Positions 8,095 to 63,113 of a stretch of DNA of 64,000 nucleotides are shown here, piece after piece; position 1 is the stretch's first letter; each line of letters starts with the position of its first letter. The DNA is taken from the NCBI GenBank assembly GCA_963721235.1, contig CAVRIK010000007.1:415398-479397 (forward strand), given 5' to 3'. The notes below the pieces were generated by a model. It was not told the DNA's origin. It saw only the letters and a list, made by a program, of their open reading frames with translations, and did not search any database. Source of the stretch: an uncultured Thermoleophilia bacterium. Lineage in GTDB: Bacteria; Actinomycetota; Thermoleophilia; Gaiellales; Gaiellaceae. Made by a program: the position numbers and the translations under genes.

Positions 8095-8793
8095 ATGGCC
8101 GACCGGAAGGTTCTCGCCGTAGATGTCGGCGGCTCCCACGTCAAGCTCCTCGTCGAGGGCGAGGCGGAGCCGCGCAGGTTCGACTCGGGATCGAAGCTGA
8201 CGCCGGGGCAGATGGTCGAAGGGACGCTGGCCACGGCCGAGGGCTGGTCGTGGGAGGTGGCGAGCGTCGGGATCCCGACGCCGGTGCGCGGCAGCAAGCC
8301 GGTCTCCGATCCGGCGAACCTCGGCAAGGGCTGGGTCGGCTTCGACTTCGAGCAGGCGTTCGGCCGGCCGACGAAGGTCGTGAACGATGCGGTCATGCAG
8401 GCGCTCGGGAGCTACGACGGCGGGCGCATGCTCTTTCTCGGGCTCGGCACCGGGCTCGGGTCCGCCTTGATCATCGACGGCGCCGTCGAGCCGCTCGAGC
8501 TCGCCCACCTGCCGTTTCGGAACGGAACGTTCGAGGACTACGTCGGCGAGCGCTCGCTCGAGCAGCGCGGCAGGAAGAAGTGGCGCAAGCTCGTCTTCGA
8601 GGTCGTCGACCAGCTCGCGAGGGCGATGCAGCCGGACTACATCGTGATCGGCGGCGGCGGCGTGAAGGAGCTCGACGAGCTGCCGCCGAACGCGCGCCGG
8701 GGCGACAACGAGCTCGCCTTTCTCGGCGGCTTCCGGCTCTGGGACCCCGCCTGGACGCCGGCGACGACGGCCGGAACCGAGCTCAGCGGCTGA
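8095..8793 (+). CDS. ROK family kinase, polyphosphate glucokinase-like
   Basis: VLAVDVGGSHVK (ATPase phosphate-1 motif), VVNDAVMQALG, LGLGTGLGSALIIDG and IVIGGGGVKEL follow the ROK/PpgK pattern. Confidence 0.75.
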   Translation: MADRKVLAVDVGGSHVKLLVEGEAEPRRFDSGSKLTPGQMVEGTLATAEGWSWEVASVGIPTPVRGSKPVSDPANLGKGWVGFDFEQAFGRPTKVVNDAVMQALGSYDGGRMLFLGLGTGLGSALIIDGAVEPLELAHLPFRNGTFEDYVGERSLEQRGRKKWRKLVFEVVDQLARAMQPDYIVIGGGGVKELDELPPNARRGDNELAFLGGFRLWDPAWTPATTAGTELSG

Positions 8794-10333
8794 AGCGCGA
8801 CGCGAGGCGCTTGGCGAGCGACGGCTCGAGCAGCTGCGCGGCGACGATCGCGCCGGAGGCGCCCCCGAGGCCGGGCCCGGGGTGTGTCGAGGCGCCGACG
8901 AGCCAGACGTTGTCGACCGGCGTCCGGTGCTGCGCACGCCAGAGGAAGTTCTGGTCGAGCTCGAGCGCACCGCCGTACGGGTCGCCGTGCACCAGGTTGA
9001 CGTTCGCCGCCTGCAGGTCGGCCGGCGAGAGGCTCGTGCGGGCGATCACCGCCGACTCCAGGTTCGGGATGTGCTGCGCGAGGCGCGCCTGGATCCGGTC
9101 GGCGTAGCGCTCTCGCAGCTCCTCCGTCCACGTTCCGTCGCCGACGTCGAGGATGCCCGCAGCGTCCCCCTTGACGTGCCACGGGAGCTCCTGCAGCTGG
9201 ATCCAGAGCAGGCCCTTGCCCTCCGGCGCACGCGAGCCGTCCATCGTCAGCGGCTGGCCGACGACGACGGTCGCCTCCGCCGGCAGCAGTCCCCGCTCCG
9301 CCTCGTTGACCGCGCGTGAGACGCCGTCGAGGCCCGGGGTCAGGTGCACGATCGCCGTCTTCCCGAGCCGGTCGTCTCCCTCCCACTCCGGCGGCTCGCT
9401 GAGCGCGAAGTGGATCTGCATCTCGCTCCGCCCGTAGCGAAACCCCTTCGCCCTGTGCTCCAGCCCGTCGAGCAGCTGCGTATAGAGCTGCGTGGGCGTC
9501 ACGTTGCAGATCACCGCACGCGCGGCGGTCAGCTTGCGGCCGTCCGCGGTGCGCACGCCGCCCGACGAGACGCGCTCCACGTGCACGCCGGTCTCGCAGG
9601 TGCCGCCCTGCGCGCGGATGCTCGAAACGAGCGCGTCGGCGAGCTTCGCGCCGCCGCCGCGCGGGATCGGCATGCCGCCCTCCTGCACCGCGACCGCGAT
9701 CACCTGCGCCATGTAGCCCGACCCCGCGGCCTCGGGGCCGAGGCCGGTGTGCAGCACCCACGGCGCGAGCACGCCGTGCGCCTGCGGCGACGCGAACGTC
9801 TGCTCCAGCCAGGCGCGCGCGGAGATCAGGAGCCGTCCGGCGAAGTCGCGGGCGCCGGAGCGCCCGAGCCGCCGCACCGCCTGCCAGCCGAGCGAGGCGC
9901 CGTGGCGCGACCAGAGCTCGCTGCCGAGGATCCCGAAGGCGAGGTCGGCGTTCGGGAAGAACCCGTCGAGCATCGGCCCCCACTCCGCGCCGAGCTCGGC
10001 GGCGTTGCCCTCGGCCGTGCGGAGCAGGAACGCGCTCTCGCCGTCCGGGAACGCGGTCGCCGTCGGGTAGTCCGTGTTCAGGTACTCGAGGCCGTGCCGC
10101 GCGAGGTCGTCGCCGAGCTGCGCGTGTGCCGGACCGCCGACCCAGAGGGGATGCCACGCACTGAAGACGTCGTGCTTGAACCCCGGCGCCGTGATCTCCG
10201 CCGTCTTGATCGCGCCGCCGAACCAGTCGTTCCGCTCGAGGACGCAGACGTTCCACCCGCCCTTCGCCAGGAGCGCCGCGCACGCGAGGCCGTTGACGCC
10301 ACTTCCGACGACGATCGCGTCGTAGTCAGCCAA
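8783..10333 (-). CDS. NAD(P)/FAD-dependent oxidoreductase, phytoene desaturase (CrtI)/amine oxidase-like
   Basis: N-terminal dinucleotide-binding motif YDAIVVGSGVNGLACAALLAKGGWNVCVLE. 516 aa. C-terminal LVGASTHPGPGLGGASG is typical of the CrtI family. Confidence 0.8.
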   Translation of the reverse strand: MADYDAIVVGSGVNGLACAALLAKGGWNVCVLERNDWFGGAIKTAEITAPGFKHDVFSAWHPLWVGGPAHAQLGDDLARHGLEYLNTDYPTATAFPDGESAFLLRTAEGNAAELGAEWGPMLDGFFPNADLAFGILGSELWSRHGASLGWQAVRRLGRSGARDFAGRLLISARAWLEQTFASPQAHGVLAPWVLHTGLGPEAAGSGYMAQVIAVAVQEGGMPIPRGGGAKLADALVSSIRAQGGTCETGVHVERVSSGGVRTADGRKLTAARAVICNVTPTQLYTQLLDGLEHRAKGFRYGRSEMQIHFALSEPPEWEGDDRLGKTAIVHLTPGLDGVSRAVNEAERGLLPAEATVVVGQPLTMDGSRAPEGKGLLWIQLQELPWHVKGDAAGILDVGDGTWTEELRERYADRIQARLAQHIPNLESAVIARTSLSPADLQAANVNLVHGDPYGGALELDQNFLWRAQHRTPVDNVWLVGASTHPGPGLGGASGAIVAAQLLEPSLAKRLASRFSR

Positions 10334-11474
10334 CGATCGCCCTGAACTCGTCGTCGGTGACGAGGCGCCGCTGCTCGGCGCCCAGCTTCTTCACCGCCGC
10401 CAGCACCTCGGCGCGCCGCTCTGCCGGCACGTCGAGCCCGAGCTCCTCGGCCTTGATGCGGATCGAGTCGAGACCGCTCTTCTTGCCGAGCACGATCGAG
10501 CGCTCCGTCGCGACGAGCTCCGACGAGTACGGCTCGATCGACTGCGGGTCGTGGAACTGCGAGGCGACCGCGCCCGACTCGCGGCGGTAGAGCGTGTCGC
10601 CCGTCACCGGCTTCCACGGCTCGAGCTCGTAGCCCGACAGCTCGCGCACGCGCGCCGAGACGGCGCGAATGCGGTCGAGGCGCAGGTTGGACTCGACGCC
10701 GTAGAGCGCGCGCAGCGCCAGCGCGACCTCACCGAGATTCGCGTTGCCGGCGCGCTCGCCCATGCCGTTGATCGTCCCGTGCACGTATGAGGCGCCGGCA
10801 CGCACCGCCGCGACCGCGGACGCGGTCGCGACGCCAAAGTCGTTGTGGCCGTGGAAGTGCACCGGCACGTCGACGAGCTCGACCGTGTGACCGACGAGCT
10901 CCGCGACCGCCTCGGGCGAGGCGATCCCGAGCGTGTCGACGACCACGACCTCCTTCGCGCCCGCCTCGACCGCCGACGAATACACCTGGTCGTAGAAGTC
11001 GCGCTCGGCGCGCGACGAGTCGACGCCGAAGAACGCCGCGTGGATGCCGTGCCCGGCCGCGAAGCGCATCGCGCTCGTGATCCGCTCGAGCATCTTCTCG
11101 CGCGAGACGCCGATCGCAGCGAGCTTCAGGTCGCTGATCGGCGACTCGATCACCGAGAAGGAGACGCCGAGCTCGACGAGCGCTTCCAGGTCGGCCGGCA
11201 CGGCGCGCGAGAAGCCCCAGATCTCGGCGCGCAGCCCCGCCGCGGCGATCCGTTCGACCGCCTGCCAGTCGTCGTCGGAGACGCGCGGGAAGCCCGCCTC
11301 GATCCGGTCGACACCGAGCTCGTCGAGCAGGCGCGCGATCTCGAGCTTCTGCTCGGGGTCGAGCACGACTCCGACGGTCTGCTCTCCGTCGCGCAGCGTC
11401 GTGTCGTACAGGCCGACGCGCCCGCCGATCTCATACGCGTCGTTCAGGGCTCCGGTCCAGATCAGGTCAGACAC
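10326..11474 (-). CDS. DRE-TIM metallolyase, 2-isopropylmalate/homocitrate/citramalate synthase (LeuA/NifV) family, no regulatory domain
   Basis: LYDTTLRDGEQ motif and HFHGHNDFG metal-binding motif. 382 aa. 8-nt overlaps with both neighbours. Confidence 0.8.
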   Translation of the reverse strand: MSDLIWTGALNDAYEIGGRVGLYDTTLRDGEQTVGVVLDPEQKLEIARLLDELGVDRIEAGFPRVSDDDWQAVERIAAAGLRAEIWGFSRAVPADLEALVELGVSFSVIESPISDLKLAAIGVSREKMLERITSAMRFAAGHGIHAAFFGVDSSRAERDFYDQVYSSAVEAGAKEVVVVDTLGIASPEAVAELVGHTVELVDVPVHFHGHNDFGVATASAVAAVRAGASYVHGTINGMGERAGNANLGEVALALRALYGVESNLRLDRIRAVSARVRELSGYELEPWKPVTGDTLYRRESGAVASQFHDPQSIEPYSSELVATERSIVLGKKSGLDSIRIKAEELGLDVPAERRAEVLAAVKKLGAEQRRLVTDDEFRAIVG

Positions 11475-12624
11475 GCACCACTCCGTCGGGAAACGGCGAG
11501 AGCTTCTCGGCTCCCGTCTCGGTGATCAGGAAGTTGTCCTCGACGCGGAGGCCGCCGCCGCCCTCCCAGTAGCAGCCCGGCTCGATCGCGAGGACCATGC
11601 CCTGCTCGATCGTGCCGCCGCCTGCCTGGTGGGGGTACGGCGGCTCGTGCGCGCGCGCGCCGATGCCGTGGCAGATCGGGTGCGAGGGCTGGCCCGGATA
11701 GCCGAGCTCGGCCAGACCGTTCCGCACGAGCACGTCGAGCTCGGCCATGCTCGCGCCCGGCTCGCAGTGGTCGATCGCGCTCCGGTAGACGGCCAGCAGG
11801 CCCTGTTCGAGCTCGCGGTAGTCGGCGCGCAGCTCGCCGACACAGAGCAGCTTCGTGTGGTCGGCCCAGTAGCCGTCGGCGCAGACCCAGATCTCGAGGA
11901 GCGTCGGCTCGCCCTCGACGACCGGCAGGTCACCCGTCGCCGTGAACGTCTTGATCCCGCGACCCGCCCATATGAGCGAGAAGCCGAACGCCAGCTCGAC
12001 CTTCCCCTCCCAGCCGGTGCCCTGCCCGTGCACGAAGCCCTGCCAGTGCGCGGCGACCTCGCTCTCCTTCATCCCAGGCTCGATCAGGCCGCGCACGTGC
12101 TCGGTCGCTGCCGCGCAGATCGCGTTTGCGAGACGCATCCGCTCGACCTCCTGCGCCGTCTTGACCGAGCGCGCCGGCACGAGCACGCTCATCGCGTCCT
12201 GTGCGTCCGGCCACGCGTCGAACCAGCCCTTCGTGAAGGTCGTCGGCTCGCCGACCATGCGGTCGGTCGCCTGCGTGCCCATGGAGAGCTCGAGGCCCAC
12301 GCGCTCGTGCTCCGCGGTCGCTGCGAGCGCGGCCTCGAGCGTGCGTGCGGGAACGGGGCGGGGATCGTCGGGCGCATAGCCGCGGACGAGCCGCACGTCC
12401 GTCGCCCACGACATGCGCTCGGCGTCCTCGGCGGAGGCTTCGAGACAGATCAGCACGGGCTCGCCCTCGCGCGGGAAGACGCAGGCGTCGTAGCCCTTCA
12501 TCCCCCAGAAGTTCGTCAGGTAGAGGACGTTGTCGGGTGCGCGCACGACGAGAGCGTCGAGGTCGCGCTCCGCCATCAGCGCGCGGACGCGCTCGAGCTT
12601 CGCGTCGTCCCTGGGCCAGCTCAC
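11467..12624 (-). CDS. M24 family metallopeptidase (Xaa-Pro dipeptidase/creatinase-like)
   Basis: ORF 11467..13254 trimmed to the GTG at 12624 (GTGA overlap with the FAH gene's stop). Creatinase-like N-domain (LDALVVRAPDNVLYLTNF) plus pita-bread domain (GHGIGARAHEPP, VLAIEPG). Confidence 0.8.
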   Translation of the reverse strand: MSWPRDDAKLERVRALMAERDLDALVVRAPDNVLYLTNFWGMKGYDACVFPREGEPVLICLEASAEDAERMSWATDVRLVRGYAPDDPRPVPARTLEAALAATAEHERVGLELSMGTQATDRMVGEPTTFTKGWFDAWPDAQDAMSVLVPARSVKTAQEVERMRLANAICAAATEHVRGLIEPGMKESEVAAHWQGFVHGQGTGWEGKVELAFGFSLIWAGRGIKTFTATGDLPVVEGEPTLLEIWVCADGYWADHTKLLCVGELRADYRELEQGLLAVYRSAIDHCEPGASMAELDVLVRNGLAELGYPGQPSHPICHGIGARAHEPPYPHQAGGGTIEQGMVLAIEPGCYWEGGGGLRVEDNFLITETGAEKLSPFPDGVVRV

Positions 12625-13505
12625 GCCTCGCCCCAGGGGCGAATCCGCGGAGGCGCGGGCACGCCGTGGCCCTCCTGCCACGAGCTGACAGGGTTGCGGA
12701 GCACGCCGATCCGCTCGATCTCCGCCTCGATCACGTCGCCCGGCTTCAGGTAGAGGAGCGCCCGCTCCTCGGGCGACTTGAAGCCGGCGACACCGGAGAC
12801 GGTGCCCGTCGAGAGCACGTCGCCGGCCGAGTACCCGAGCGCCGAGAAGTTGGAGAGGATCTCCGGGATCGTCACGCTCATGCGGCCCGAGTGCGACTCC
12901 TGCCGCTTCTCGCCGTTCACGCGCAGCTCCATCGCCAGGTCGTGCGGATCCGGGATCTCGTCGGCGGTGACGATCCACGGCCCGAGCGGGCAGAACGTGT
13001 CGATCGCCTTGCAGAAGCTGAAGACGCCCGACTTCATCTCGCCGCGCTGGATGTCGCGCGCGGTGATGTCGTTGAAGATGACATAGCCCGCGATGTAGTC
13101 CTTCGCCTCCTCCGGCGAGAACCACTTGCCGGCCTTCTTCAGGACGACGGCGAGCTCGAGCTCGTAGTCGAGCTCCTCGGTCAGGTGCTCCGGGTAGATG
13201 ATCGGCTCGTCGGGGCCGACGATCGCATCGACGTTCTGGAAGAAGTTGATCCACGGTGCGATCTGGTGCGACCAGTCGACGTTCTTCGACTCTTCCTCGT
13301 GCTCCCGGAAGTTGCCGGCGGTGTGGAAGAACTTCTTCGGGACGATCGGCGCCCGCAGGCGGACGTCTGCCAAAGGCGTACGCTCACCCGTGTCGTCGGC
13401 GCCGCCGCTCTCGAAATACTCCCGCATGCTCGGCACGCCGAGGCGCACGACCTCTTCTCCCTCGATGCGGCCGACCTTGCCGTCGTCGTAGGTGACGAGC
13501 TTCAT
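12621..13505 (-). CDS. fumarylacetoacetate hydrolase (FAH) family protein
   Basis: ORF 12621..14585 trimmed to the ATG at 13505 (MKLVTYDDGKVGRIEG). LDYELELAVVL and GDVLSTGTVSGVG-like motifs. ATGA overlap with the upstream stop. Confidence 0.85.
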   Translation of the reverse strand: MKLVTYDDGKVGRIEGEEVVRLGVPSMREYFESGGADDTGERTPLADVRLRAPIVPKKFFHTAGNFREHEEESKNVDWSHQIAPWINFFQNVDAIVGPDEPIIYPEHLTEELDYELELAVVLKKAGKWFSPEEAKDYIAGYVIFNDITARDIQRGEMKSGVFSFCKAIDTFCPLGPWIVTADEIPDPHDLAMELRVNGEKRQESHSGRMSVTIPEILSNFSALGYSAGDVLSTGTVSGVAGFKSPEERALLYLKPGDVIEAEIERIGVLRNPVSSWQEGHGVPAPPRIRPWGEA

Positions 13506-14716
13506 GCGCAGATCCTCTGTGCGACGAGCGCGTAGATCTCGGCGGTCTTGACGAGCCCGTCGATGTCGAGGTTCTCGCCGAGCTCGACGTCCATCAGCCC
13601 GGTCGAGGTGCCGTAGTTGAGGGTCGGGATGCCGTACCGCGTGAGCGCGGAGGCGTCGCTGAACCATCGCGTGACGTCGCGGGCAGGAACGTCGCCGAAG
13701 ACCTGCTCGTGAGCGGCGTCGACCGCCTGCACGAGCTCGTGACCCTCCTCGATCTCGGCGCCGGGCGCCGTGACGTAGACCTCGCCCTCGATCCCGTAGG
13801 CGGGGAAGCGCTCGGCGAGCGACCGGACGAACTCGAGCACCTCTCGGCGGGCGACGCCCATCTCTTTGGTCGGCGGCACGCGGACGTCGAGGAAGAGGTC
13901 GGTGTGGTGCGGCGTGCGCGAGACGCGCCAGCCGAAGCCGCCCCGGACCGCGCCGACGTTGACGATCGCGTTCGCGCCACGGTAGGAGTTCGACTCGTCG
14001 TTCTCCCACGTGGGGATCCACTCGAGCACAGCGTTCGTCACCTCGTGCATGCGCAGGATCGAGTTCTCGCCGCGCTTCCCCTCGCTGAACGCCGTGTGGA
14101 TGAAGTTGCCGTGGGTGCGGATCCGCAGCCACAGCGCGCCGAAGTGGCCGAGCACAACCTTTCCCTCCGTCGGCTCGCCGAGCAGGCACATGTCGGCGAC
14201 GCCGCCGTGCGTGACGAGGTAGCGCGAGCCGGCCGCGTAGCCGCGGTATTGCGAGCCCTGCGCCTCGGCGTACTGTGTCTTCTCGATCTCGCCGCAGACC
14301 GCCGCGATCAGGACGTCGCCGCGCAGTCGCACGCCGGCGTCCTGCAGCGAGCGCACCGCCTCGACGTAGCAGGCGAGCGCGCCCTTCATGTTCGAGATGC
14401 CGAGCCCGTAGAGGCGGTTGTTCCTGACGAACGCGCTCGGCTGGAAGCCCGGCACGTCCTTCAGCCACGCTTCCCGGCCGGAGTACGACGTGTCCATGTG
14501 GCCGTTGAACATCAATGTCTTGCCGCCGCCGGTGCCGCGCCAGGTCCCGAGCGCGTTCGCGCGTCCCTCCTCGACCTGCTGCCATTGCACCTGGAGGCCC
14601 ATCCGCTCGTAGAGCGAGACCATCAGCTGCGCCATCCGCTGCTCGTCGCCCGTGAAGCTGTGGACGTCGATCATCGCGCTCGCCGTCTCGACGAGCCGGT
14701 TCTTGTTGATCCTCAC
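13502..14716 (-). CDS. M20 family metallohydrolase (ArgE/DapE/acyl-amino-acid deacylase type)
   Basis: ORF 13502..15310 trimmed to the GTG at 14716, 2 nt after the upstream stop. LMFNGHMDT, GLGISNMKG and CGEIEK fit the M20 metal and catalytic motifs. Confidence 0.8.
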   Translation of the reverse strand: MRINKNRLVETASAMIDVHSFTGDEQRMAQLMVSLYERMGLQVQWQQVEEGRANALGTWRGTGGGKTLMFNGHMDTSYSGREAWLKDVPGFQPSAFVRNNRLYGLGISNMKGALACYVEAVRSLQDAGVRLRGDVLIAAVCGEIEKTQYAEAQGSQYRGYAAGSRYLVTHGGVADMCLLGEPTEGKVVLGHFGALWLRIRTHGNFIHTAFSEGKRGENSILRMHEVTNAVLEWIPTWENDESNSYRGANAIVNVGAVRGGFGWRVSRTPHHTDLFLDVRVPPTKEMGVARREVLEFVRSLAERFPAYGIEGEVYVTAPGAEIEEGHELVQAVDAAHEQVFGDVPARDVTRWFSDASALTRYGIPTLNYGTSTGLMDVELGENLDIDGLVKTAEIYALVAQRICA

Positions 14717-14718
14717 GG

Positions 14719-18685: not shown

Positions 18686-19155
18686 TCGGACGCCGCCTTG
18701 ACGGCCTCGAAGATGTTCCAGTAGCCGGTGCAGCGGCAGATGTTGCCCTGCAGGCCCTTCTTGATCTCGTCCTCCGACGGATGCGGGTTCGAGCGGAGCA
18801 GCGCGGTGGCGCTCATCAGCATCCCCGGCGTGCAGTAGCCGCACTGCAGGGCGTGATTGTCCTTGAACGCCTGCTGCAGCTTGTTCAGCTCCTCGCCGTC
18901 CGCGAGCCCCTCGACCGTTTCGACCGTCGCACCGTCGGCCTGCACGGCGAGCATCATGCAGCTCTTCACGAGCGAGCCGTCGACCATCACGGAGCACGCG
19001 CCGCAGTTGCCCGTGTCGCAGCCGATGTGGCTCCCGGTCAGGTCGAGATCGTCGCGGATGAAGTGGATGAGGAGCTTGCGCGCCTCGACCTCGCGCTCGT
19101 ACGTCGTGCCGTTGATCGTGACCGTGATCGACCTGGACGTTGTGACCGTGCTCAC
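18682..19155 (-). CDS. (2Fe-2S)-binding small subunit of molybdenum hydroxylase (CoxS type)
   Basis: CDTGNCGACSV, CGYCTPG and CRCTGY cluster motifs; 157 aa. Confidence 0.9.
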   Translation of the reverse strand: MSTVTTSRSITVTINGTTYEREVEARKLLIHFIRDDLDLTGSHIGCDTGNCGACSVMVDGSLVKSCMMLAVQADGATVETVEGLADGEELNKLQQAFKDNHALQCGYCTPGMLMSATALLRSNPHPSEDEIKKGLQGNICRCTGYWNIFEAVKAASE

Positions 19156-19157
19156 TC

Positions 19158-19955
19158 TCAGCTCCTGGCTTGGTTGACGGCGCGGACTGCGAGCACCTCG
19201 GCGAGGTGCCTGCGGTAGTCGCTCGTGGCGTGGACGTCGGAGGGCGGATCGAGCTTCGCTGCGTGCACGGCCTCACGAACAGCGCCCTCGTCGGCGGTGG
19301 CCGGATGCAGGACGACGGGGACCGCGTCGACGCAGCCGAGGGCGATCGTCACGCCGCCGTTCACGGAGGCGGCGGCACTCGCGATGCACGTCCCGTCGAC
19401 GCCGAGGGTGACCGCCGCGAAGCCGTCGCCACGACCGGCGGGAACGGTGATCTTGGTCAGGACCTCGCCGACCCCCACGGCGGTCAGGTAGACGCCGAGG
19501 AAGAAGTCCGCTGCGGGCACCGTCCGCGCACCGTCCGCTCCCGCGATCGTCATCTGCGCGCCGAGCGCCGCCATCAGCGGCGGCAGGTGGTTCGTCGGGT
19601 CGCTCGTGCAGAGGTTCCCGCCGATCGTGCCGCGGTTTCGCACCTGCACGTCGGCGATCTGCGCGCACACCTGGCCGATGATCGGCCGCGCGCGCGCCTC
19701 GCTGGATTCGACGAGCTCGGTGTAGGTCGCCATCGCGCCGATCTCGAGCGTGCCGTCGGCTGCCAGCTCGATTCCCTGCAGCTCCTCGACGGCCGACAGG
19801 TCGATCAGTGCGTCGGGCGAGCCGGCACGTGCCTTCATGACGTTGATCAGCGTCTGCCCGCCGGCGAGCGCACGCGCGCCGTCGTCGGCCGCGAGCAACT
19901 CGATCGCTTCTCCGAGCGATCCCGGCCGCGCATATCCGACCTCACGAAGAAGCAT
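19158..19955 (-). CDS. FAD-binding medium subunit of molybdenum hydroxylase (CoxM type)
   Basis: AGGQTLINVM and RNRGTIGGNL motifs of FAD_binding_5; 265 aa. Confidence 0.9.
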   Translation of the reverse strand: MLLREVGYARPGSLGEAIELLAADDGARALAGGQTLINVMKARAGSPDALIDLSAVEELQGIELAADGTLEIGAMATYTELVESSEARARPIIGQVCAQIADVQVRNRGTIGGNLCTSDPTNHLPPLMAALGAQMTIAGADGARTVPAADFFLGVYLTAVGVGEVLTKITVPAGRGDGFAAVTLGVDGTCIASAAASVNGGVTIALGCVDAVPVVLHPATADEGAVREAVHAAKLDPPSDVHATSDYRRHLAEVLAVRAVNQARS

Positions 19956-20005
19956 CGTCAGTGCGTCTTATAAAATGTCAGGTGGGCTGAATGCAAGTCT
20001 GAACC

Positions 20006-20033
20006 GGTGTCCGACACCCATCGTGTCAGACAC
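20006..20033. promoter_or_regulatory. two adjacent palindromes GGTGTC-C-GACACC and GTGTC-A-GACAC upstream of the Mo-hydroxylase genes; candidate operator
   Basis: Read directly: 20006-20018 and 20023-20033, centres 16 nt apart, 51-78 nt upstream of the CoxM-type start codon (19955). They sit in the only sizeable gap of the gene run. The second overlaps the stop of the PLP-enzyme gene. An A/T-rich patch TTATAAAAT lies at 19969-19977. Confidence 0.3.
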
Positions 20034-21174
20034 CCGAGGCCAGCAGCGCGCGGTGGCGGCCGAGGGCGGCGAGCACGGCGTCGATGTCCTCCGCGGTGTT
20101 GTACGCGTGGGCGGAGACGCGCAGGTTGCCGTCGCGCTCGGAGGTGACGATGTCCTCTGCCTCGAGCGCGGCGACGAGCTGCGGGGCATCGGTCGAGCGG
20201 ATGCACACGAGCGCGCCGCGCCGCTCCGGGTCGCGCGGGGTGACGACCGTCCCGCCGAGCTCGTCGACGCCGCCGATCAGGCGCTCGTTCAGCGCCGTCA
20301 CGTGCGCACGCGTCTCGGCGACGCCGATCTCCTCCATCAGCTCCAGGCCGGCGATCCCCGCGTAGATCGCCGGGATCGGCGGCGTGCCCGACTGGAAGCG
20401 CCGCGCCGTCGGCGACGGCGAGTAGTCGGTGATGTCCATCTCGAAGATGTTCTCGTCGGCGAACCAGCCCGTCTGGGTCGGGAGCAGGCGCTCGGAGAGC
20501 CCGGGTCGCGTCCACATGAACCCGAGCCCGGCCGACCCGAGCAGGTACTTCAAGACGCCGGCGGCGAGCACGTCGACCCCGAGCTCGCGCACGTCGAGCG
20601 GATACGTGCCGATCGCCTGGTACGCGTCGAGGACGACGAGCGCACCCTGCTCGTGCGCGATCTGCGTGATCTCCTCGACCGGCAGGCGCGCGCCGTTGCG
20701 GTAACAGACGGCCGTGATCGAGACGACCGCCGTCTGCTCGTCGATCGCCGCGGCGAACGCGTCGGCGTCGGGCGGGACGATCGTGACCTCCGCCCCGCGC
20801 AGCTCCTGCGCATGCCAGATCTGCCCGATCGTCGGGAACTCGAAGTCGCTGATCACGACCTTCGGCCGCGCCGCGAAGTCGATCGCGCTCGCGAGCGGGC
20901 TCACACCGGCCGACAGCGACGTCGTCACTGCGACGTCGTCGGCCTCGCCGCCCACGAACCGGGCGAAGGTCGCGCGTGCGGTCTCCGCCCGCTCGACCCA
21001 GTACTCCCAGGGCGCCCCGCGCTCGTCCCAGCCCGTCAGATAGTGGTCGTAGGCGGCTCGAACGGCGTCGGAGAGCGCGCCCTGCGAGCACGAGTTGATG
21101 TAGGTGAGCCGGTCGAAGATCGGGAAGCGCGAGCGGCAGCCCTTGACGGAGACGTCCGTCGCGCTAGCGGCCAA
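20026..21174 (-). CDS. class V aminotransferase-fold PLP-dependent enzyme
   Basis: ORF 20026..21375 trimmed. The only start-like codon after the livF stop region is TTG at 21174 (LAASATDVSVKGCRSRFPIFDRLTYINSCSQGAL). VVLDAYQAIG and KYLLGSAGLGFMW fit the class V fold. The start is uncertain. Confidence 0.75.
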   Translation of the reverse strand: MAASATDVSVKGCRSRFPIFDRLTYINSCSQGALSDAVRAAYDHYLTGWDERGAPWEYWVERAETARATFARFVGGEADDVAVTTSLSAGVSPLASAIDFAARPKVVISDFEFPTIGQIWHAQELRGAEVTIVPPDADAFAAAIDEQTAVVSITAVCYRNGARLPVEEITQIAHEQGALVVLDAYQAIGTYPLDVRELGVDVLAAGVLKYLLGSAGLGFMWTRPGLSERLLPTQTGWFADENIFEMDITDYSPSPTARRFQSGTPPIPAIYAGIAGLELMEEIGVAETRAHVTALNERLIGGVDELGGTVVTPRDPERRGALVCIRSTDAPQLVAALEAEDIVTSERDGNLRVSAHAYNTAEDIDAVLAALGRHRALLASGV

Positions 21175-21880
21175 GGTAGGCCTTTCGGAGGTTCTCGTCT
21201 TCGCGCAGGTCGGCCGCGTTTCCCTCGAGCACCAGGCGGCCGGTCGAGAGCACGTAGCCCCGGTCGGCGATCGACAGGGAGACGTTGGCGTTCTGCTCGA
21301 CGACGAGGATCGCGACGCCCGATTCGTGCACCTGCTTGATGATCTCGAAGTTGCGCTCGACGAGGATCGGGGCAAGTCCCATCGACGGCTCGTCCATCAG
21401 GAGCAGCTTCGGGCTCGACATCAGCGCCCGGCCCATGGCGACCATCTGCTGCTCGCCGCCCGACAGCGTGCCGGCGAGCTGCGAGCGGCGCTCGTGCAGC
21501 AGGGGGAACAGGCCGTAGACCCGGTCGAAGTCCTCCTTGGAGCCGCCGCCGCGCAGGTAGGCACCCATCTCGAGGTTCTCGAGCACCGTCATCGGAGCGA
21601 ACAGGCGCCGGTTCTCGGGCACGATCGCGAGGCCGCGGGCGATGCGATAGCTGGTCGGACGCTTCGTCACGTCCTCCCCGTCGATGCGAACCGCGCCGTT
21701 CCGCGGCCGGACGATGCCGAGAATCGTCTTCAAGGTGGTCGACTTGCCGGAGGCGTTGCCGCCGAGCAGGCAGACGAGCTCGCCGGGCTCGATCTTGATC
21801 GACAGCCCCTGCAGGATGTGGATCTGCCCGTAGTACGTGTCGACGGCATCGAGCTCGAGCAGGCTGGCGGCACCGGTCAT
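21164..21880 (-). CDS. livF: ABC transporter ATP-binding protein, LivF type (second system)
   Basis: Walker A GGNASGKST, signature LSGGEQQ, Walker B LLMDEPS. ATGA overlap with the upstream stop. Confidence 0.9.
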   Translation of the reverse strand: MTGAASLLELDAVDTYYGQIHILQGLSIKIEPGELVCLLGGNASGKSTTLKTILGIVRPRNGAVRIDGEDVTKRPTSYRIARGLAIVPENRRLFAPMTVLENLEMGAYLRGGGSKEDFDRVYGLFPLLHERRSQLAGTLSGGEQQMVAMGRALMSSPKLLLMDEPSMGLAPILVERNFEIIKQVHESGVAILVVEQNANVSLSIADRGYVLSTGRLVLEGNAADLREDENLRKAYLGR

Positions 21881-22662
21881 TTGCGCTCCGCCGTGCCGAG
21901 ACCGAGGTAGGCCTCGACGACCTTCTCGTTCGTCGCCACCGACTCATACGAGCCCTCGGCGATCTTGATCCCGTGGTCGAGGGCGACGACGCGGTCGGAG
22001 ATGCCCTCGACGACATGCATGTCGTGCTCGATCACGAGGATCGTGTATCCGCCGTCCTCGCGCAGCTTGCCGATCAGCTCGGTGATCTCGTGCGTCTCCT
22101 TCGGGTTCATGCCCGCGGCCGGCTCGTCCAGCAACAGGATGCGCGGGTTGGTCGCCGTCGCACGCGCGATCTCGAGGCGGCGACGGTTCGCGTACGAGAG
22201 CGAATACGCCGGCTGGTCCCACCGGTAGCCCATCAGGCGCTCGCCGAAGAACGCGAGCCGGTCGCGCGCGAGCTGCTCGATCTCGCGCTCCTCGCGTCGC
22301 ATGCCGGGCGTCCGCATCATCGAACGGAAGAGACCGGCCTTCGTGTGGCAATACGCAGCCGCCATCACGTTCTCCTTGACCGACATGTTCAGGAAGAGGC
22401 GGAGCGTCTGGAACGTGCGCGAGATGCCATGGGCGGTGATCTGGTGAGGCTGCAGTCCGGCGATGCTCCGGCCGTCCAGCCTGATGTCGCCCTCGTCAGG
22501 GTCGTAGATGCCGGTTATGAGATTGAAGAGGGTCGTCTTACCTGCGCCGTTCGGCCCGATCACCGAGACGATCGTGCCCTCTTCGACATCGATGTCGAGG
22601 CCGTCGACGACCTTCAGGCCTCCGAACGAGAGCGAGACCCCCTGCAGCTCCAACAACGCCAC
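21877..22662 (-). CDS. livG: ABC transporter ATP-binding protein, LivG type (second system)
   Basis: ORF 21877..22905 trimmed to the GTG at 22662 (VALLELQGVSLSFGG), a 1-nt overlap with the permease TAG. Walker A GPNGAGKTT, Walker B LLLDEPAAGM. Confidence 0.85.
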   Translation of the reverse strand: MALLELQGVSLSFGGLKVVDGLDIDVEEGTIVSVIGPNGAGKTTLFNLITGIYDPDEGDIRLDGRSIAGLQPHQITAHGISRTFQTLRLFLNMSVKENVMAAAYCHTKAGLFRSMMRTPGMRREEREIEQLARDRLAFFGERLMGYRWDQPAYSLSYANRRRLEIARATATNPRILLLDEPAAGMNPKETHEITELIGKLREDGGYTILVIEHDMHVVEGISDRVVALDHGIKIAEGSYESVATNEKVVEAYLGLGTAERK

Positions 22663-24134
22663 TAGACGATCTCCACACGGCGCTCGCCGAGGAGGCCATT
22701 CGGCCGCAGGATCATGAGGCCGATCAGGATCAGGCCGAGCACGATGTACCGCGCCGGCTCCGGCTTCGCGAGCATCACGTTCTCCCACACGAACGCGGCG
22801 AGATAGAGAGTCGGCACGAGTGCGATCAGGCGAAGCGTCCCCTTGAGCTGCGTGACGACGAGCACGGCAACGATCACGCCCACGTACGTGACCGGGGCGA
22901 CCCACCGGGCAAGCTGTGCAGGTGCGACGACCCAGTTGGCCAAGAAGCCTGCGAGCCCGCCTGCGTGCTCCCCGGCGACCCAGGATGAGTGCATCTCCCC
23001 CGCGATCGCATGGACCACGAATCCGAAGACGACGAGTCCCAGGGCTGTCACCGCAACGGCGCGCGACTTCCGCGCGGCGAGCGCCAACCCGCCGACGAGA
23101 ACGATGAAGAAAATGGCGCGCGACTTATCCGGGTCGCGAAGAGCCTCGAGCAGCGGCCCGATGATGATCGCACCGAGAACGACACCCGCTTGGCTACCAG
23201 AGCCGCCGAGGATAACCATCGTGTAGACCGTGATGAGCAGAACGAAATAGAAGGCAAGCGGAAACACGCTTGCTGTAAGCGCGGCGAAGAGCGTCCCGGT
23301 GAGCGCCGCGACTGCAGCGCCGGACGCAAAGCTGACGAGCTTGAGTCGGTTCACGGGCATGCCCATCGCCTCGGCTGCGAGCGGATCCTCCCGGAGCGAG
23401 CGCCACGCGCGGCCTGTCCGGGAATTGTTGATGAACCGAAGCGCCACGAACACGATCGTGAAGAACGCCAGCGCGACATAGAGATACGACACGGCGAAAA
23501 CGCCCTCGTGCGCGACAACGAGCGTGTGGCCGAAGAAGCTGAACGGGTCGACGTTGAGGATCCCGAACGGCCCACCGGTGATGTTGTGACCGCTGACGTT
23601 GTCGCCGTTCGTGGCCAGCGTCTGGAAGAGCTGGAGGAAGAACAGGGTGACGATCGCGAGGTAGTCACCGCTCAGCCTGCGCGATGGCAGCCCGACCATG
23701 AGTCCGGCAAGAGCGCCGACGACGACGACCACAGGCACGGCGACGATCGTCGGCAGATGGACACCGAACTGGCTTGAGTCGAGGAATGCGTAGGTATAGG
23801 CGCCGATTCCGTAGAAGGCGACGAAGCCGAGATCGAGCAATCCGCCCCAGCCGACGACTACGTTGAGACCGAGCGCGAGCAGCATGTACAGCACCGTGTC
23901 GAAGGCGACGAGGCGCACGTAACCGCTCTGCTCGAACAACGGGAACACCGAGAACGCGCACACGAACAGCGCCAGCCAGACCCACCACGGCACGCGGCGG
24001 AGACGGCTCTCGATCGTCCCCAGAGGCCCGCCACGGCCGACCCGGTGCTCGCTGTGGCGTGCAACCCACTCGTCCTGGCCGACGGCCGGCCCGGGAGCCG
24101 GGGTCGGCGAGGAATGCGACGTCGGATCACTCAC
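22662..24134 (-). CDS. livM: HAAT-family ABC transporter permease, LivM type, with long N-terminal extension (second system)
   Basis: 490 aa. After a roughly 45-aa polar N-terminus it is multi-pass hydrophobic. GYVRLVAFDTVLYMLLALGLNVVVGWGGLLDLG is LivM-like. Confidence 0.85.
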   Translation of the reverse strand: MSDPTSHSSPTPAPGPAVGQDEWVARHSEHRVGRGGPLGTIESRLRRVPWWVWLALFVCAFSVFPLFEQSGYVRLVAFDTVLYMLLALGLNVVVGWGGLLDLGFVAFYGIGAYTYAFLDSSQFGVHLPTIVAVPVVVVVGALAGLMVGLPSRRLSGDYLAIVTLFFLQLFQTLATNGDNVSGHNITGGPFGILNVDPFSFFGHTLVVAHEGVFAVSYLYVALAFFTIVFVALRFINNSRTGRAWRSLREDPLAAEAMGMPVNRLKLVSFASGAAVAALTGTLFAALTASVFPLAFYFVLLITVYTMVILGGSGSQAGVVLGAIIIGPLLEALRDPDKSRAIFFIVLVGGLALAARKSRAVAVTALGLVVFGFVVHAIAGEMHSSWVAGEHAGGLAGFLANWVVAPAQLARWVAPVTYVGVIVAVLVVTQLKGTLRLIALVPTLYLAAFVWENVMLAKPEPARYIVLGLILIGLMILRPNGLLGERRVEIV

Positions 24135-24165
24135 CGGTCCAGCCTCCGCTCCTGCAGGACGACGC

Positions 24166-25089
24166 TCATACCTTCCGGATGTCCGCCCGGCCGAGCAGTC
24201 CTTGCGGGCGGAAGATCATGAACGCAATCAGGATGGAGAACACGATCAGATCCGACCATTTGGTGGAGATGTATCCCTCGGTGAACGACTCCGCGAACCC
24301 GAGGAGCAGCCCGCCTGCCATGGCGCCGGGGATGGAGCCTATGCCACCGATCACGGCCGCGGTGAAGCCTTTCAGCCCCGAGACGAATCCGATCGAGACG
24401 GTGGTCGGGACTCGAAGCGCGAACATGACCCCGGCGGCACCGGCAAGCGCGGAACCGAGTACGAACGTGAAGACGATCACTCTGTCGATATTCACACCCA
24501 TCATCGCCGCAGCCTCGCGATCGAACGACGTGGCGCGCATCGCCTTCCCTGTCCTCGTCCGGTTGACGAGGAACCAAAGAAGGATCATCAGCACGAGCGC
24601 CGAGCTGATCGTGATGATTCGCAACAGCGGCACCCGTACATTGCCGATGTCGATGCCCTTCAGGTAGAGGGCGCCGTTGTTGATCGCGAACACGTTGTAG
24701 TTCCTGGGCTGAGCTCCGAAGAGCAACTGCATCGAGTTCGCGAGAAAGAACGACACCCCGAGCGCGCTGATGAGCGGGGCGATCCTCGGCGCATCTCGAA
24801 GAGGTCGATACGCGAAACGCTCGATCGTGACGCCTAGCGCCGCGCAGCCCGCCATCGCGGCGAGCGTCATGATGGTGAGAAGAAGCCAAACGGGCACCTT
24901 CGGGTGCTCGGGCCCACCCAACGCATTCAGCACACCGAAACCGATGAACGTCCCGACCATGAACACGTCGCCGTGGGCGAAGTTCAAGAGCTTGAGAACC
25001 CCGTAGACGAGCGTGTATCCGAGCGCGATCAGCGCATACACGCTGCCCAGGGTGAGAGCGTCGACGGTGAGCTGGATGAAGGTGTCCAC
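24166..25089 (-). CDS. livH: HAAT-family ABC transporter permease, LivH type (second system)
   Basis: 307 aa starting (V/M)DTFIQLTVDALTLGSVYALIALGYTLVYG. GTG start preceded by GGGAG. Confidence 0.9.
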   Translation of the reverse strand: MDTFIQLTVDALTLGSVYALIALGYTLVYGVLKLLNFAHGDVFMVGTFIGFGVLNALGGPEHPKVPVWLLLTIMTLAAMAGCAALGVTIERFAYRPLRDAPRIAPLISALGVSFFLANSMQLLFGAQPRNYNVFAINNGALYLKGIDIGNVRVPLLRIITISSALVLMILLWFLVNRTRTGKAMRATSFDREAAAMMGVNIDRVIVFTFVLGSALAGAAGVMFALRVPTTVSIGFVSGLKGFTAAVIGGIGSIPGAMAGGLLLGFAESFTEGYISTKWSDLIVFSILIAFMIFRPQGLLGRADIRKV

Positions 25090-25101
25090 GTGGTCTCCCT
25101 C

Positions 25102-25147
25102 GCAACGTTCCGGGGGCGACCCGTTTGCGGCCGCCCCCGGACGTTGC
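25102..25147 (-). promoter_or_regulatory. intercistronic stem-loop between the binding-protein gene and livH
   Basis: GCAACGTTCCGGGGGCG / CGCCCCCGGACGTTGC form about 16 bp (one bulge) around a 13-nt loop. It lies in the 75-nt gap after the binding-protein stop (25165) and just upstream of the livH ribosome-binding site. Confidence 0.5.
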
Positions 25148-25164
25148 TACCGATCTATCCCTGG

Positions 25165-26358
25165 CTACTGGAGGAGCTTGTACGAGCCGTTGGGCTGGAT
25201 CTGGAAGATGTAGAACTTCGCGTTCAGCGGGTCGTTCGTCTTCGTCGAGAAGGCGAAGTTCCCACCGAGAATGAAGTTCTTGATCTTCACCTGCTTCATG
25301 TGCCGAAACACATCACGCCGCTGAATCACGCCGTGATGGGCCGCGCACGTCTGCTTGATCGCTTGGAGCACGATCTGGACCGCTCCGTAGGTGGGCGGCC
25401 CGAACGAGCCGACGGTTTTCCCTGGATTGGCCTTCAGCCAGCCGGCGATGATCGGCTTGTTGTAGGGGAAGAGGCTGATCGGGGCTGCGAAGTTCGAGAC
25501 GTACGAGCCCGGCACCTTGAACTGAGACGGGTCGTTGGAACCGTCACCGCCGAACACCTTCGCCTTCTTGCCCTGCTCGAGCAACTGCTGGGCGAACGTC
25601 TGCGCGTCACCCGGCTTCTGCGTCGGGAAGAAGACGACATCGGCGTTGTTCGGAACCTTCGTCACGTAGGCCGAATAGTCGGTCGTCGTGTTCGGCGCTG
25701 AGAGATGGGTCACGTTGACGCCGGCCTTCTTGAGCACCGCGTCGACCGCACTGGACAGTCCGACGGAGTACGGCTCCTGGAAGTCCATGGTCACGACGTT
25801 GCTGACCTTGAGTTTGTTGATCATGAAGCGAGCGTCCGTCGGGCCCTGGATGTAGTCACCCGGGACGTCGCGGAAGAACGCGGGCGTTCCGATCAGAGGA
25901 TCGGACGCCGTGCCGATCGTCAGGTCCGTGTGAGTCGCCGACGGGGAGATCGCCGCCAGCCCAGCTGCGAAGAACGCCTTCGCGGTGGCACCTGCGTCAC
26001 CCGATGTCGACGGCCCGAGAATCGCGACGACACTCTTGTCCGAGATGTACTTCTGCGCGAGCGCCTGCGCCGGGGCGGGCCCTTGCTCGACAGGCGTATC
26101 GCCGAGTACGAGCTTGACCTTCAAGCCGTACTTTGCCGGCAGCGTCTGGATTGCGTACTTGGCCCAGCTCGCCTGCTCGGCGCCCAGGAACCCGGCGCCT
26201 CCGGTCAACGGCGTCAGGAACGGGATGGTCATCCTGCTCGTGCAACTGATCGACTGCGACGACGCCGCGGAGACCGCGACCTTGTGGGCGCCCTGCGCGC
26301 TCGCAGCCACGACCGAGGTCGTGAGAACCGCGAGGGCGAGGCCGATCGCCTTCTTCAT
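25165..26358 (-). CDS. ABC transporter substrate-binding protein (type I periplasmic binding fold, second system)
   Basis: 397 aa with signal peptide MKKAIGLALAVLTTSVVAASAQG. AAGGAGGA lies upstream of the ATG. Confidence 0.9.
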   Translation of the reverse strand: MKKAIGLALAVLTTSVVAASAQGAHKVAVSAASSQSISCTSRMTIPFLTPLTGGAGFLGAEQASWAKYAIQTLPAKYGLKVKLVLGDTPVEQGPAPAQALAQKYISDKSVVAILGPSTSGDAGATAKAFFAAGLAAISPSATHTDLTIGTASDPLIGTPAFFRDVPGDYIQGPTDARFMINKLKVSNVVTMDFQEPYSVGLSSAVDAVLKKAGVNVTHLSAPNTTTDYSAYVTKVPNNADVVFFPTQKPGDAQTFAQQLLEQGKKAKVFGGDGSNDPSQFKVPGSYVSNFAAPISLFPYNKPIIAGWLKANPGKTVGSFGPPTYGAVQIVLQAIKQTCAAHHGVIQRRDVFRHMKQVKIKNFILGGNFAFSTKTNDPLNAKFYIFQIQPNGSYKLLQ

Positions 26359-26417
26359 CTAGGTGTCCTCCTTACTGGGGGCACGATGGTCGATTGCCGG
26401 GGGGTTGGCGCTGGAAG

Positions 26418-26443
26418 CGTGAGTGTCATCCGTGACACTCACG
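26418..26443 (-). terminator. perfect 11-bp stem / 4-nt loop hairpin downstream of the SnoaL-like gene (no U-tract)
   Basis: CGTGAGTGTCA tccg TGACACTCACG read directly. It lies 11 nt past the stop at 26454 and 60 nt upstream of the binding-protein ATG, so it could also be an operator. Confidence 0.35.
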
Positions 26444-26453
26444 GTGTCAATGA

Positions 26454-26846: not shown

Positions 26847-26876
26847 CCGCGTAGGTTACGCAGCGTGCGCTACGCG

Positions 26877-49646: not shown

Positions 49647-49685
49647 CATCTAGACCTCGTAGCTCCAGAGCAGGGCACGGAGTGC

Positions 49686-49715: not shown

Positions 49716-49724
49716 GTGCGTGGG

Positions 49725-63063: not shown

Positions 63064-63113
63064 CCTTCAGAGGGTACGACAGTTCGCGGGTGAGATCGAG
63101 CCGCGGGTCGCGG

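Follow-up and report, generated by a model that had tools for sequence, protein, structure and literature searches.

What does a run of 16 tightly packed, co-directional genes do in an uncultured member of the Gaiellaceae? The run occupies positions 8783-26358 on the minus strand of the window, i.e., the whole stretch of 64,000 nucleotides analyzed here (C7:415398-479397, where C7 is contig CAVRIK010000007.1), and comes from a genome of 3.25 Mb in 9 contigs. The closest relatives of this genome are soil metagenome-assembled genomes (MAGs) that carry the labels Gaiellaceae, Gaiellales, or Thermoleophilia, and the Gaiellaceae, like related Thermoleophilia, rank with the most abundant and least understood bacteria of soil. 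A sequence-only reading had proposed that the run may form an uncharacterized catabolic island for a nitrogen compound. We consider it reasonably probable that the 16 genes lie at the center of a catabolic regulon of several operons, conserved in soil Actinomycetota and directed at an α-amino-acid-like nitrogen compound, and the set probably breaks down such an imported compound by a route that matches no described pathway.

The gene arrangement is conserved beyond chance. Synteny was counted in 42 species-level Gaiellaceae genomes, within 10 kb on either side of CoxL, the molybdenum (Mo)-pterin subunit of a Mo hydroxylase. Genes for CoxM, CoxS, CoxL, and CoxG (CoxMSLG), a luciferase-like monooxygenase (LLM)-family oxidoreductase, and a fumarylacetoacetate hydrolase (FAH)-family protein were present in 42/42 loci, a creatinase/prolidase-fold hydrolase (M24a) in 41/42, and an M20 deacylase, a LeuA-like DRE-TIM enzyme (DRE), and a flavin adenine dinucleotide (FAD) oxidoreductase in 40/42; the importer genes livHMGF were found in 41 to 42 of the 42. 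These core genes keep the same order and orientation throughout the Gaiellaceae loci, as they do in genomes of the same genus and of the same order. A bicupin gene is present and divergent in 39/42, and a SnoaL-like gene occurs in 21/42 (it is syntenic in G007, G006, G009, and G263). When all window proteins were compared by tblastn with the loci of relatives, the whole array was recovered in same-genus genomes, and the LLM gene was the most conserved of the set (88-97% identity within the genus). Conserved synteny in relatives, which the sequence-only reading had named as a check on its island, was thus found in 40 to 42 of the 42 genomes, and a loss of synteny was clearly not seen.

The phyletic distribution points the same way. 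Orthologs of CoxL form a sharply bounded group (orthologs at least 58% identical, paralogs at most 39%), and a homology search with the window CoxL returned only near-identical proteins from Gaiellaceae MAGs. In a phylum sample of 401 genomes, CoxL orthologs occurred in G000, G263, G289, and G204, plus fragments in G164, and orthologs of a second M24 hydrolase (M24b), encoded just left of the window, occurred in exactly G000, G263, G289, and G204. The last of these is Egibacter rhizosphaerae, a cultured organism of another class with a complete genome. Its island spans ~40 kb and has the core order FMN reductase, CoxM, CoxS, CoxL, CoxG, FAD oxidoreductase, second LLM, GntR/FCD regulator, LLM, M20, FAH, M24a, PanE, PanE, M24b; a DRE ortholog (55%) adjoins a gene for a kynureninase-like pyridoxal 5'-phosphate (PLP) enzyme (40%, with a KYNU_C domain).

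Other relatives carry the same modules in different arrangements. In G263, CoxMSLG-LLM-M20-FAH-M24a-DRE-PanE1-HAAT-B-PanE2-M24b forms one array (HAAT-A and HAAT-B denote two hydrophobic amino acid transporter-type importers), the FAD and TIM-barrel genes are divergent, and SnoaL-HAAT-A-bicupin-PLP lies on a separate contig from the Cox operon, with the bicupin gene inside the importer operon. The FAD gene is also divergent beside coxM in G289, G030, G038, L121, and L123, and G030, in which operon B genes join the Cox/LLM array as in G263, has a tryptophan 2,3-dioxygenase (TDO)-like gene between M24a and PanE1. L126, a distant metagenome contig from ENA, has [Aminotran_5-LivF-LivG-LivM(468 aa)-LivH-SBP], where SBP is the substrate-binding protein, divergent from [LLM-M20-FAH-M24-DRE-PanE-PanE-M24-bicupin]; beside these importer and hydrolase operons lie [CoxMSLG-SDR-GntR-FAD], in which SDR is a short-chain dehydrogenase/reductase, and a second HAAT system. 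The operon LLM-M20-FAH-M24-DRE-PanE-PanE-M24, intact in L126, is split in two in the window genome, where its first half is fused behind CoxMSLG and its second half stands behind HAAT-B in the neighboring operon B; this split ties the Mo hydroxylase to the hydrolase/reductase operon. The modules lie within ~40 kb in three classes despite much rearrangement.

The core of the island as first read from the sequence is therefore real, and the set reaches past both ends of 8783-26358. Beyond the 16 genes it includes two PanE genes, M24b, HAAT-B, a xylose-isomerase-like TIM barrel, the GntR/FCD gene, and the bicupin gene, which co-localize with the core in Egibacter and the distant contig. Genes for TDO-like, aldo-keto reductase (AKR), ornithine cyclodeaminase (OCD)-family, PALP-family, and class V PLP proteins belong to this larger set in Gaiellales.

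All 16 genes were found where the sequence-only reading had placed them, each with a family-level Pfam assignment, and its junctions agree exactly with the start-codon table, which gives gaps of 75, 31, 70, 2, and 2 nt and overlaps of 1, 4, 11, 4, 4, 4 (or 1), 4, 4, 8, and 8 nt. The count needs one addition, a 17th co-directional gene, the SnoaL-like one, 95 nt upstream of the SBP gene. The notion of one 16-gene unit had to be dropped: a conserved promoter-like block precedes coxM, the importer and PLP operon is on a different contig in G263, and the run did not qualify as a single polycistronic operon of 16 genes. The run instead comprises at least two transcription units with a neighboring third, all on the minus strand: unit 1 is SnoaL, HAAT-A, and the class V PLP gene; unit 2 is CoxM-CoxS-CoxL-CoxG-LLM-M20-FAH-M24a-DRE-FAD; and unit 3 is operon B. 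The GntR/FCD and bicupin genes are divergent neighbors. Since every junction in unit 2 is an overlap or a 2-nt gap, this unit fits translational coupling.

Units 1 and 2 meet in the intergenic gap between the PLP gene and coxM (19956..20025, minus strand), which holds TTGCAT-N17-TTATAA, a promoter-like block that precedes the ATG of coxM by 12 nt. Comparison of 78 distinct loci upstream of coxM showed that most carry one of two forms of this block, either ACTTGC[AG]-N17-ACATTTTATAA[GA]AC followed by 12-13 nt and ATG, or CTTGCAA...TAGGAT with GTG 7 nt later, an arrangement of the leaderless type. The block is conserved in about 70 genomes, and the remainder of the gap is not. We read it as a promoter-like element that separates the Cox-to-FAD unit from the importer/PLP unit, and draw this from cross-genome conservation only, because a strict sigma-70 scan of 8500-27000 returned 0 promoters (and 2 terminator-like sites against 5 expected). 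An Rfam scan of window positions 1-30000, judged by E-value, found no riboswitch or other RNA family.

Upstream of the coxM block, twin GTGTCnGACAC palindromes (20007-20017 and 20023-20033) are spaced 16 nt apart. The 64-kb window has no other perfect copies, and 47 perfect sites occur in 2.1 Mb of relatives' loci. The pair is a candidate lineage-specific operator or a small repeat element; we rejected it as an established operator, given how few relatives keep it (see below) and that a TGTCA-N4-TGACA site before the SBP gene was not above chance. In the relatives L032-L042, L049, and L051 the same gap is filled with palindromic repeats of the GAACCAGGTTC / GAATCTGGTTCGC / GAATCAGATTCG type. 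Such repeats, which look like repetitive extragenic palindromic (REP) elements, fill several intergenic gaps of the island in relatives and also recur after AT5b, the last gene of operon B, just left of window coordinate -6016.

Protein functions were tested against the curated NCBIfam equivalog cut-offs, and structures were compared by AF2 models and Foldseek. No island protein scored above any equivalog cut-off, and the roles given below are family-level assignments. Unit 2 begins with a three-subunit Mo hydroxylase of the xanthine dehydrogenase family, in which all FAD, 2x[2Fe-2S], and Mo subunit domains were found: CoxM (FAD subunit; 19158-19955; Pfam FAD_binding_5 and CO_deh_flav_C), CoxS (2x[2Fe-2S]; 18682-19155; Fer2 and Fer2_2), and CoxL (16208-18685; Ald_Xan_dh_C, MoCoBD_1, and MoCoBD_2). 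CoxG (15753-16211; assigned by its Pfam domain) follows. CoxL has GGGFG (residue 261) and GMGEGG (residue 768), and PNRGYSR replaces the loops of carbon monoxide dehydrogenase (CODH). Its best PDB matches are Mycolicibacterium smegmatis CoxL (8uem) and quinoline 2-oxidoreductase (1t3q), at about 1e-122; its NCBIfam scores are 435 against a cut-off of 991 (TIGR02416) and 476 against 950 (NF040766), and all equivalog cut-offs were missed. We rejected an aerobic CODH, as CoxL is without both AYRCSFR (form I) and AYRGAGR (form II) and falls below the NCBIfam cut-offs. Public labels in this CoxL clade include 'aerobic carbon-monoxide dehydrogenase large subunit', '2-furoyl-CoA dehydrogenase large subunit', 'aldehyde oxidase', and 'xanthine dehydrogenase family protein', none of which is supported by the motif or cut-off tests.

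The LLM oxidoreductase (14719-15756; Bac_luciferase, 4.6e-44) has its best NCBIfam and PDB matches in F420-dependent Mer, below the cut-off (113 versus 276), and is probably F420-dependent itself. CofD scored above its cut-off in all four genomes tested (G000, G263, G030, and Egibacter), and in Egibacter an FMN reductase gene adjoins coxM. The FAD oxidoreductase that ends the unit (8783-10333; Amino_oxidase, 3e-12, and NAD_binding_8) reached 191 against 1000 for CrtO and 112 against 238 for crtI_fam. Its AF2 model (mean confidence score, pLDDT, 91) best matched the CrtD-type gamma-carotenoid desaturase 4rep (template modeling score [TM], 0.76-0.80). A flavin amine oxidase of the monoamine oxidase (MAO)/NicA2 type was rejected as an assignment, the structure being nearer to 4rep.

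Between these oxidoreductases lie three hydrolase-type genes and a synthase-like gene. The M20 ArgE/DapE-type deacylase (13502-14716; Peptidase_M20 and M20_dimer) scored 161 bits on TIGR01910 against a cut-off of 217.6. For the FAH-family protein (12621-13505; FAA_hydrolase, 5e-65), which may be a hydrolase, decarboxylase, or isomerase of the small HpaG/FAHD type, the best NCBIfam match was 2,4-didehydro-3-deoxy-L-rhamnonate hydrolase (146 bits against 500). M24a (11467-12624; Creatinase_N and Peptidase_M24) has a dinuclear metal site close to the canonical one (E, D, H, E, E), with motifs HGIGARAHEPP, AIEPG, and RVED, and matched YpdF, prolidases, and DoeA in the PDB. The DRE protein, a Claisen-condensing enzyme of the LeuA/NifV/CimA type (10326-11474; 382 aa, without a regulatory domain; HMGL-like, 3e-62, and HCS_D2), carries DTTLRDGEQ and HFHGHND motifs; its best equivalog scores (348 versus 517, 336 versus 485, and 300 versus 463) are below the cut-offs, so no specific synthase was identified.

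Unit 1 encodes HAAT-A, a complete LivJHMGF-type importer, comprising SBP-A (25165-26358; Peripla_BP_6), LivH (24166-25089; BPD_transp_2), LivM (22662-24134; 490 aa; BPD_transp_2), LivG (21877-22662; ABC_tran), and LivF (21164-21880; ABC_tran). Aligned to Escherichia coli LivJ, SBP-A keeps S79, S/A100-A101-T102, and Y150, with E226 replaced by D and Y202 by Q; most of the LivJ contacts to the α-amino and α-carboxylate groups are therefore preserved. The stretch 22001-26358, which covers SBP, LivH, and LivM, has a G+C content of 0.63-0.65 against ~0.70 in the window, and is by far the most divergent stretch among same-genus genomes. In G003 identity to the window is 92% for LivF and 94% for CoxL, as compared to 48% for LivM, 60% for LivH, and less than 45% for SBP; in G009 it is 91-94% throughout. 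The substrate-facing half of HAAT-A looks to have been swapped between close relatives.

The importer unit is headed by the gene for the SnoaL-like (NTF2-fold) protein (26454-26846; SnoaL_2, 3.5e-16) and ends with the class V PLP gene (20026-21174; 382 aa; Aminotran_5, 2e-41, and KYNU_C, 1.5e-9). The latter is read in frame 20026..21375, probably from a TTG at 21174, and overlaps livF by 11 nt. At a window G+C of ~70%, raw lists of open reading frames (ORFs) are full of overlapping frames, and we discarded ORF 19958-21091 as the PLP gene, an overlapping-frame artifact with no Pfam match. The top PDB match of the PLP enzyme was kynureninase 1qz9 (1.8e-26), with 81.7 bits on the kynureninase model TIGR01814 against a cut-off of 246.4; Foldseek gave TM 0.71 for 1qz9 versus 0.68-0.70 for SufS (model pLDDT, 70.7). 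Kynureninase (KynU) was not accepted as its identity, with the equivalog cut-off missed and Foldseek not separating kynureninase from cysteine desulfurase. Divergent from the SnoaL-like gene is the bicupin gene (26865..27533, plus strand, starting at GTG 26865 or ATG 26877), with two Cupin_2 stretches (Pfam E, 7.5e-28) and weak PDB or NCBIfam matches to quercetinase, gentisate dioxygenase, ureidoglycine aminohydrolase, and EctC. The two start codons are only ~18-30 nt apart, which leaves two options: each divergent promoter is located within the coding region of the opposite gene, or neither mRNA has a leader.

Operon B continues the set to the left. From upstream to downstream it encodes the xylose-isomerase-like TIM barrel (6131-7015), SBP-B (4938-6134), and LivG (4167-4931), LivF (3466-4170), LivH (2564-3469), and LivM (1569-2567), all assigned by Pfam, and HAAT-B is likewise a complete LivJHMGF-type importer. 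PanE1 (655-1581) and PanE2 (which starts at 658 and extends past the window edge) belong to the 2-dehydropantoate 2-reductase (PanE/ApbA) subfamily (TIGR00745, 204.3 and 221.4 against a subfamily cut-off of 141.35); every equivalog-level model was below its cut-off, so that a substrate is not implied. M24b follows just left of the window (-1377..-250, genome C7:414021-415148), and then the TDO-like, AKR, OCD, PALP, and class V AT5b genes, assigned by Pfam, down to window coordinate -6016. The three genes downstream of M24a in Egibacter correspond, in the same order, to PanE1, PanE2, and M24b (55, 65, and 56% identity). M24b has E, E, H, H, and Q where M24 metallopeptidases carry D, D, H, E, and E, is kept at 56-67% identity across classes, and, like creatinase, may work as a hydrolase without a metal or with altered metallation. 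The TDO-like protein (232 aa) scored 112 bits on Pfam Trp_dioxygenase against 34.9 (E, 4.5e-32), and is encoded by the sole such gene in each Gaiellales genome tested. PALP scored 220 bits on EutB and 196 on BhcB, and OCD scored 154 on EutC and 179 on BhcD, all below cut-offs.

The GntR/FCD-family regulator (7122-7772, plus strand; Pfam GntR and FCD) is 40% identical to the GntR protein within the Egibacter cluster, and a GntR/FCD gene also lies inside the cluster in L121, L122, L123, and L126. It is a candidate regulator of the gene set.

Importers and GntR/FCD regulators are typical of catabolic systems, and we infer the following order of reactions. One or two Liv-type importers would take in an α-amino-acid-like nitrogen compound, which would be oxidized by the CrtI-fold flavoprotein and, with CoxG, by the water-dependent Mo hydroxylase; the F420-type LLM would contribute a reduction or oxygenation. 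M24a, M24b, and the M20 deacylase would then cut C-N bonds (of a cyclic amide or amidine, and of an N-acyl group), and the class V PLP and FAH-family enzymes would cut or rearrange the resulting 2-amino-4-oxo or 2,4-dioxo acid. Finally, two PanE-type reductases and the LeuA-type synthase would turn the released 2-oxo acids into central metabolites, with the GntR/FCD protein putatively repressing the units until the substrate or an intermediate is present. As to the substrate, our leading guesses are a cyclic imino or amidine-type amino acid, because of the DoeA-like M24 pair with a deacylase and PALP/OCD proteins that weakly resemble EutB/EutC and Pyr2C reductases, and a tryptophan- or kynurenine-derived compound, because of the TDO-like gene and kynureninase-like PLP enzyme (likewise a weak lead). 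The hydroxylation, ring opening, and deamidation proposed by the sequence-only reading are still conjecture, and no result identifies an N-heterocycle as substrate.

Several observations weigh against a single catabolic regulon. The PLP gene was detected beside the cluster in only 22 of the 42 Gaiellaceae loci, and CoxMSLG orthologs (65-68% identity) are also found by themselves (L120 and L124) or beside different partners (L122). The analysis established no operator common to the units, and only 6 relatives (including L095, L035, L041, L055, and L110) have the twin palindromes before coxM. The TDO-like gene is absent in Egibacter, the FAD protein is modeled with the fold of a carotenoid desaturase and matched amine oxidases of the NicA2/MAO type only at TM 0.50-0.60, and LeuA-type enzymes normally run in the synthetic direction. 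Moreover, each enzymatic role is deduced at the family level only.

Some of these observations would suit independent catabolic modules with different substrates, i.e., an amino-acid importer with its PLP enzyme, a Mo aldehyde/heterocycle oxidoreductase, and a hydrolase/reductase operon, held side by side by genome streamlining or island co-transfer. The conserved internal promoter-like block before coxM, the importer and PLP operon on another contig in G263, the CoxMSLG orthologs found alone or with other partners, and the self-contained LLM-M20-FAH-M24-DRE-PanE-PanE-M24 operon of L126 all agree with such a patchwork. However, CoxL and M24b share the same phyletic pattern in 401 genomes, the modules stay within ~40 kb in three classes despite extensive rearrangement, and in Gaiellaceae a 4-nt CoxG-LLM overlap joins two of the modules in one coupled array. 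We regard independent modules as unlikely.

A variant of tryptophan/kynurenine catabolism appears somewhat less plausible still. Here a TDO-like heme dioxygenase would open the indole ring, a hydrolase would remove formate, the kynureninase-like PLP or FAH enzyme would cut the 2-amino-4-oxo/2,4-dioxo acid, and the Mo hydroxylase with the remaining enzymes would degrade the aromatic or heterocyclic product. As in the KynA/KynU pathway, a TDO-family gene and a class V PLP enzyme with kynureninase as its best match are linked to the set in Gaiellales: the TDO-like gene stands directly after M24b in operon B, is the only copy per Gaiellales genome tested, and lies inside the core array in G030, and the PLP enzyme has a KYNU_C domain here as in Egibacter. 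Quinoline 2-oxidoreductase is, in addition, the second-best structure match of CoxL. Both enzymes are nevertheless divergent and below the equivalog cut-offs (149.8 against 390.7 on TIGR03036 for the TDO-like protein, and the kynureninase score given above), Foldseek does not separate kynureninase from SufS, and the TDO-like gene is missing not only in Egibacter but also in the distant metagenome contigs. No KynB-type formamidase and no anthranilate- or kynurenate-degrading enzymes were seen in the island, and PanE, LeuA-like, and LLM proteins have no role in known kynurenine routes.

A divergent form of a characterized pathway is very unlikely, the candidates being ectoine/hydroxyectoine (DoeA/DoeB/EutB/EutC), purine-ureide (xanthine dehydrogenase, AllC, ureidoglycine aminohydrolase), and nicotinate/picolinate catabolism and the β-hydroxyaspartate cycle. 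Ectoine catabolism (DoeA/EutD, DoeB/EutE, EutB, EutC) offers parallels: an M24 creatinase-fold hydrolase is followed by a deacylase, a PALP dehydratase and an OCD-family reductase share an operon in the window genome, M24a and M24b align with DoeA over their full length, and the bicupin has a weak EctC match, besides one to the ureidoglycine aminohydrolase of the purine-ureide route. By analogy, the logic of the island suggests opening of a cyclic amidine or amide and then deacylation. In contrast to ectoine catabolism, the island deacylase is of the M20 rather than the AstE/AspA type, a Mo hydroxylase is present, and the importers are HAAT systems instead of tripartite ATP-independent periplasmic (TRAP) or Ehu transporters. 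We rejected M24a and M24b as ectoine hydrolase DoeA/EutD: on TIGR02993 and NF038259, M24a scored 60.7 against 613 and 50.7 against 575 (M24b, 41.7 and 44.3), and no DoeB-, DoeC-, or DoeD-type genes are in the Pfam content. PALP and OCD, whose EutB/EutC and BhcB/BhcD scores favor such a pathway, lie outside the cross-class core, and scores throughout were far under the curated cut-offs (613, 413, 472, 550, 500, and 200-445). Purine and pyridine pathways typically include a Mo hydroxylase, yet the island Pfam content holds no uricase, allantoinase, NicC/NicX, or PicB-D genes.

Least credible of all is a biosynthetic set that makes a small metabolite through the LeuA-type synthase, PanE reductases, and tailoring oxidoreductases from a precursor imported by the ABC systems, for although LeuA-type enzymes and ketopantoate reductases are classically anabolic and a large nonribosomal peptide synthetase (NRPS)-like ORF occurs elsewhere in the window, HAAT systems are importers, the set includes four hydrolases and a GntR/FCD regulator and no ligases, carrier proteins, or exporters, and the NRPS-like ORF is >20 kb away and not syntenic in relatives.

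A conserved catabolic regulon for an amino-acid-like compound thus remains the reading we favor, and it can be set against described Mo-hydroxylase-centered catabolic clusters, which are a known kind of system. Like the nic, pic, ndh/kdh/spm, and qor N-heterocycle clusters, the island groups hydrolase, flavoprotein, and transporter genes with a Mo hydroxylase of three CoxM/S/L-type subunits in which the GGGFG and GMGEGG motifs are intact. Unlike them, it is without a ring monooxygenase/dioxygenase, deformylase, maleamate amidase, and maleate isomerase and has instead LLM, M20, FAH, two M24, a LeuA-type synthase, and two PanE proteins; its CoxL is ~35-40% identical to any characterized enzyme. 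The sequence-only reading had found no match to known clusters, and the hallmark enzymes of nicotinate, picolinate, nicotine, purine, and ectoine catabolism are indeed not in the Pfam content. Because these hallmarks and any equivalog match are lacking, the description as an uncharacterized catabolic island stands. The riboflavin/lumichrome pathway, which uses P450, thiamine diphosphate (ThDP), and Rieske enzymes (PMC12746152), was rejected since these enzymes are absent here.

A literature search for this enzyme combination returned no described counterpart, and the set passed none of the ortholog-level membership tests applied. Three points are new here: the hydrolase/reductase operon is tied, physically and by phyletic pattern, to a non-CODH CoxL clade and a CrtI-fold flavoprotein; the set now takes in two importers, a regulator, and a TDO-to-AT5b tail; and it has a cultured carrier, Egibacter rhizosphaerae, for which the literature found was ecological only. 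Because the core is also present in this cultured organism, the question is experimentally tractable.

A set of ~25-30 genes kept across dozens of Gaiellaceae species, and common to Nitriliruptoria and other Actinomycetota, suggests a nutrient of importance to these bacteria that annotation currently misses. Its Mo subunit is routinely auto-annotated as a CO dehydrogenase or 2-furoyl-CoA dehydrogenase, and these labels inflate inferences of trace-gas use and furan degradation from metagenomes. More speculatively, and with clearly less confidence than in the regulon itself, we suggest that the island and operon B together could constitute a complete undescribed pathway that degrades a nitrogen compound abundant in soil or the rhizosphere (a cyclic imino/amidine amino acid or a tryptophan-derived heterocycle), with a chemistry unprecedented as a set. 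It would be a signature trait of the Gaiellaceae, which belong to the most common uncultured lineages of soil. If so, the unprecedented set would join a non-CODH CoxL clade and CrtI-fold flavoprotein to an F420 LLM, a metal-site-degenerate M24, a ketopantoate-reductase pair, and a catabolic LeuA-type synthase.

Two further plus-strand genes lie between the FAD and GntR genes. One (7798-8061) is of the SUI1/eIF1 family, and the other (8095-8793) is short and ROK-like, with a weak Pfam match; both are syntenic in G003 and G009 and have no evident tie to the pathway. At the other end of the window, frame analysis picked out ORFs at 49647-57602 (plus strand) and 59320-63066 (minus strand), of 2652 and 1249 aa, which have high G+C at third codon positions and are possibly NRPS/polyketide synthase-like.

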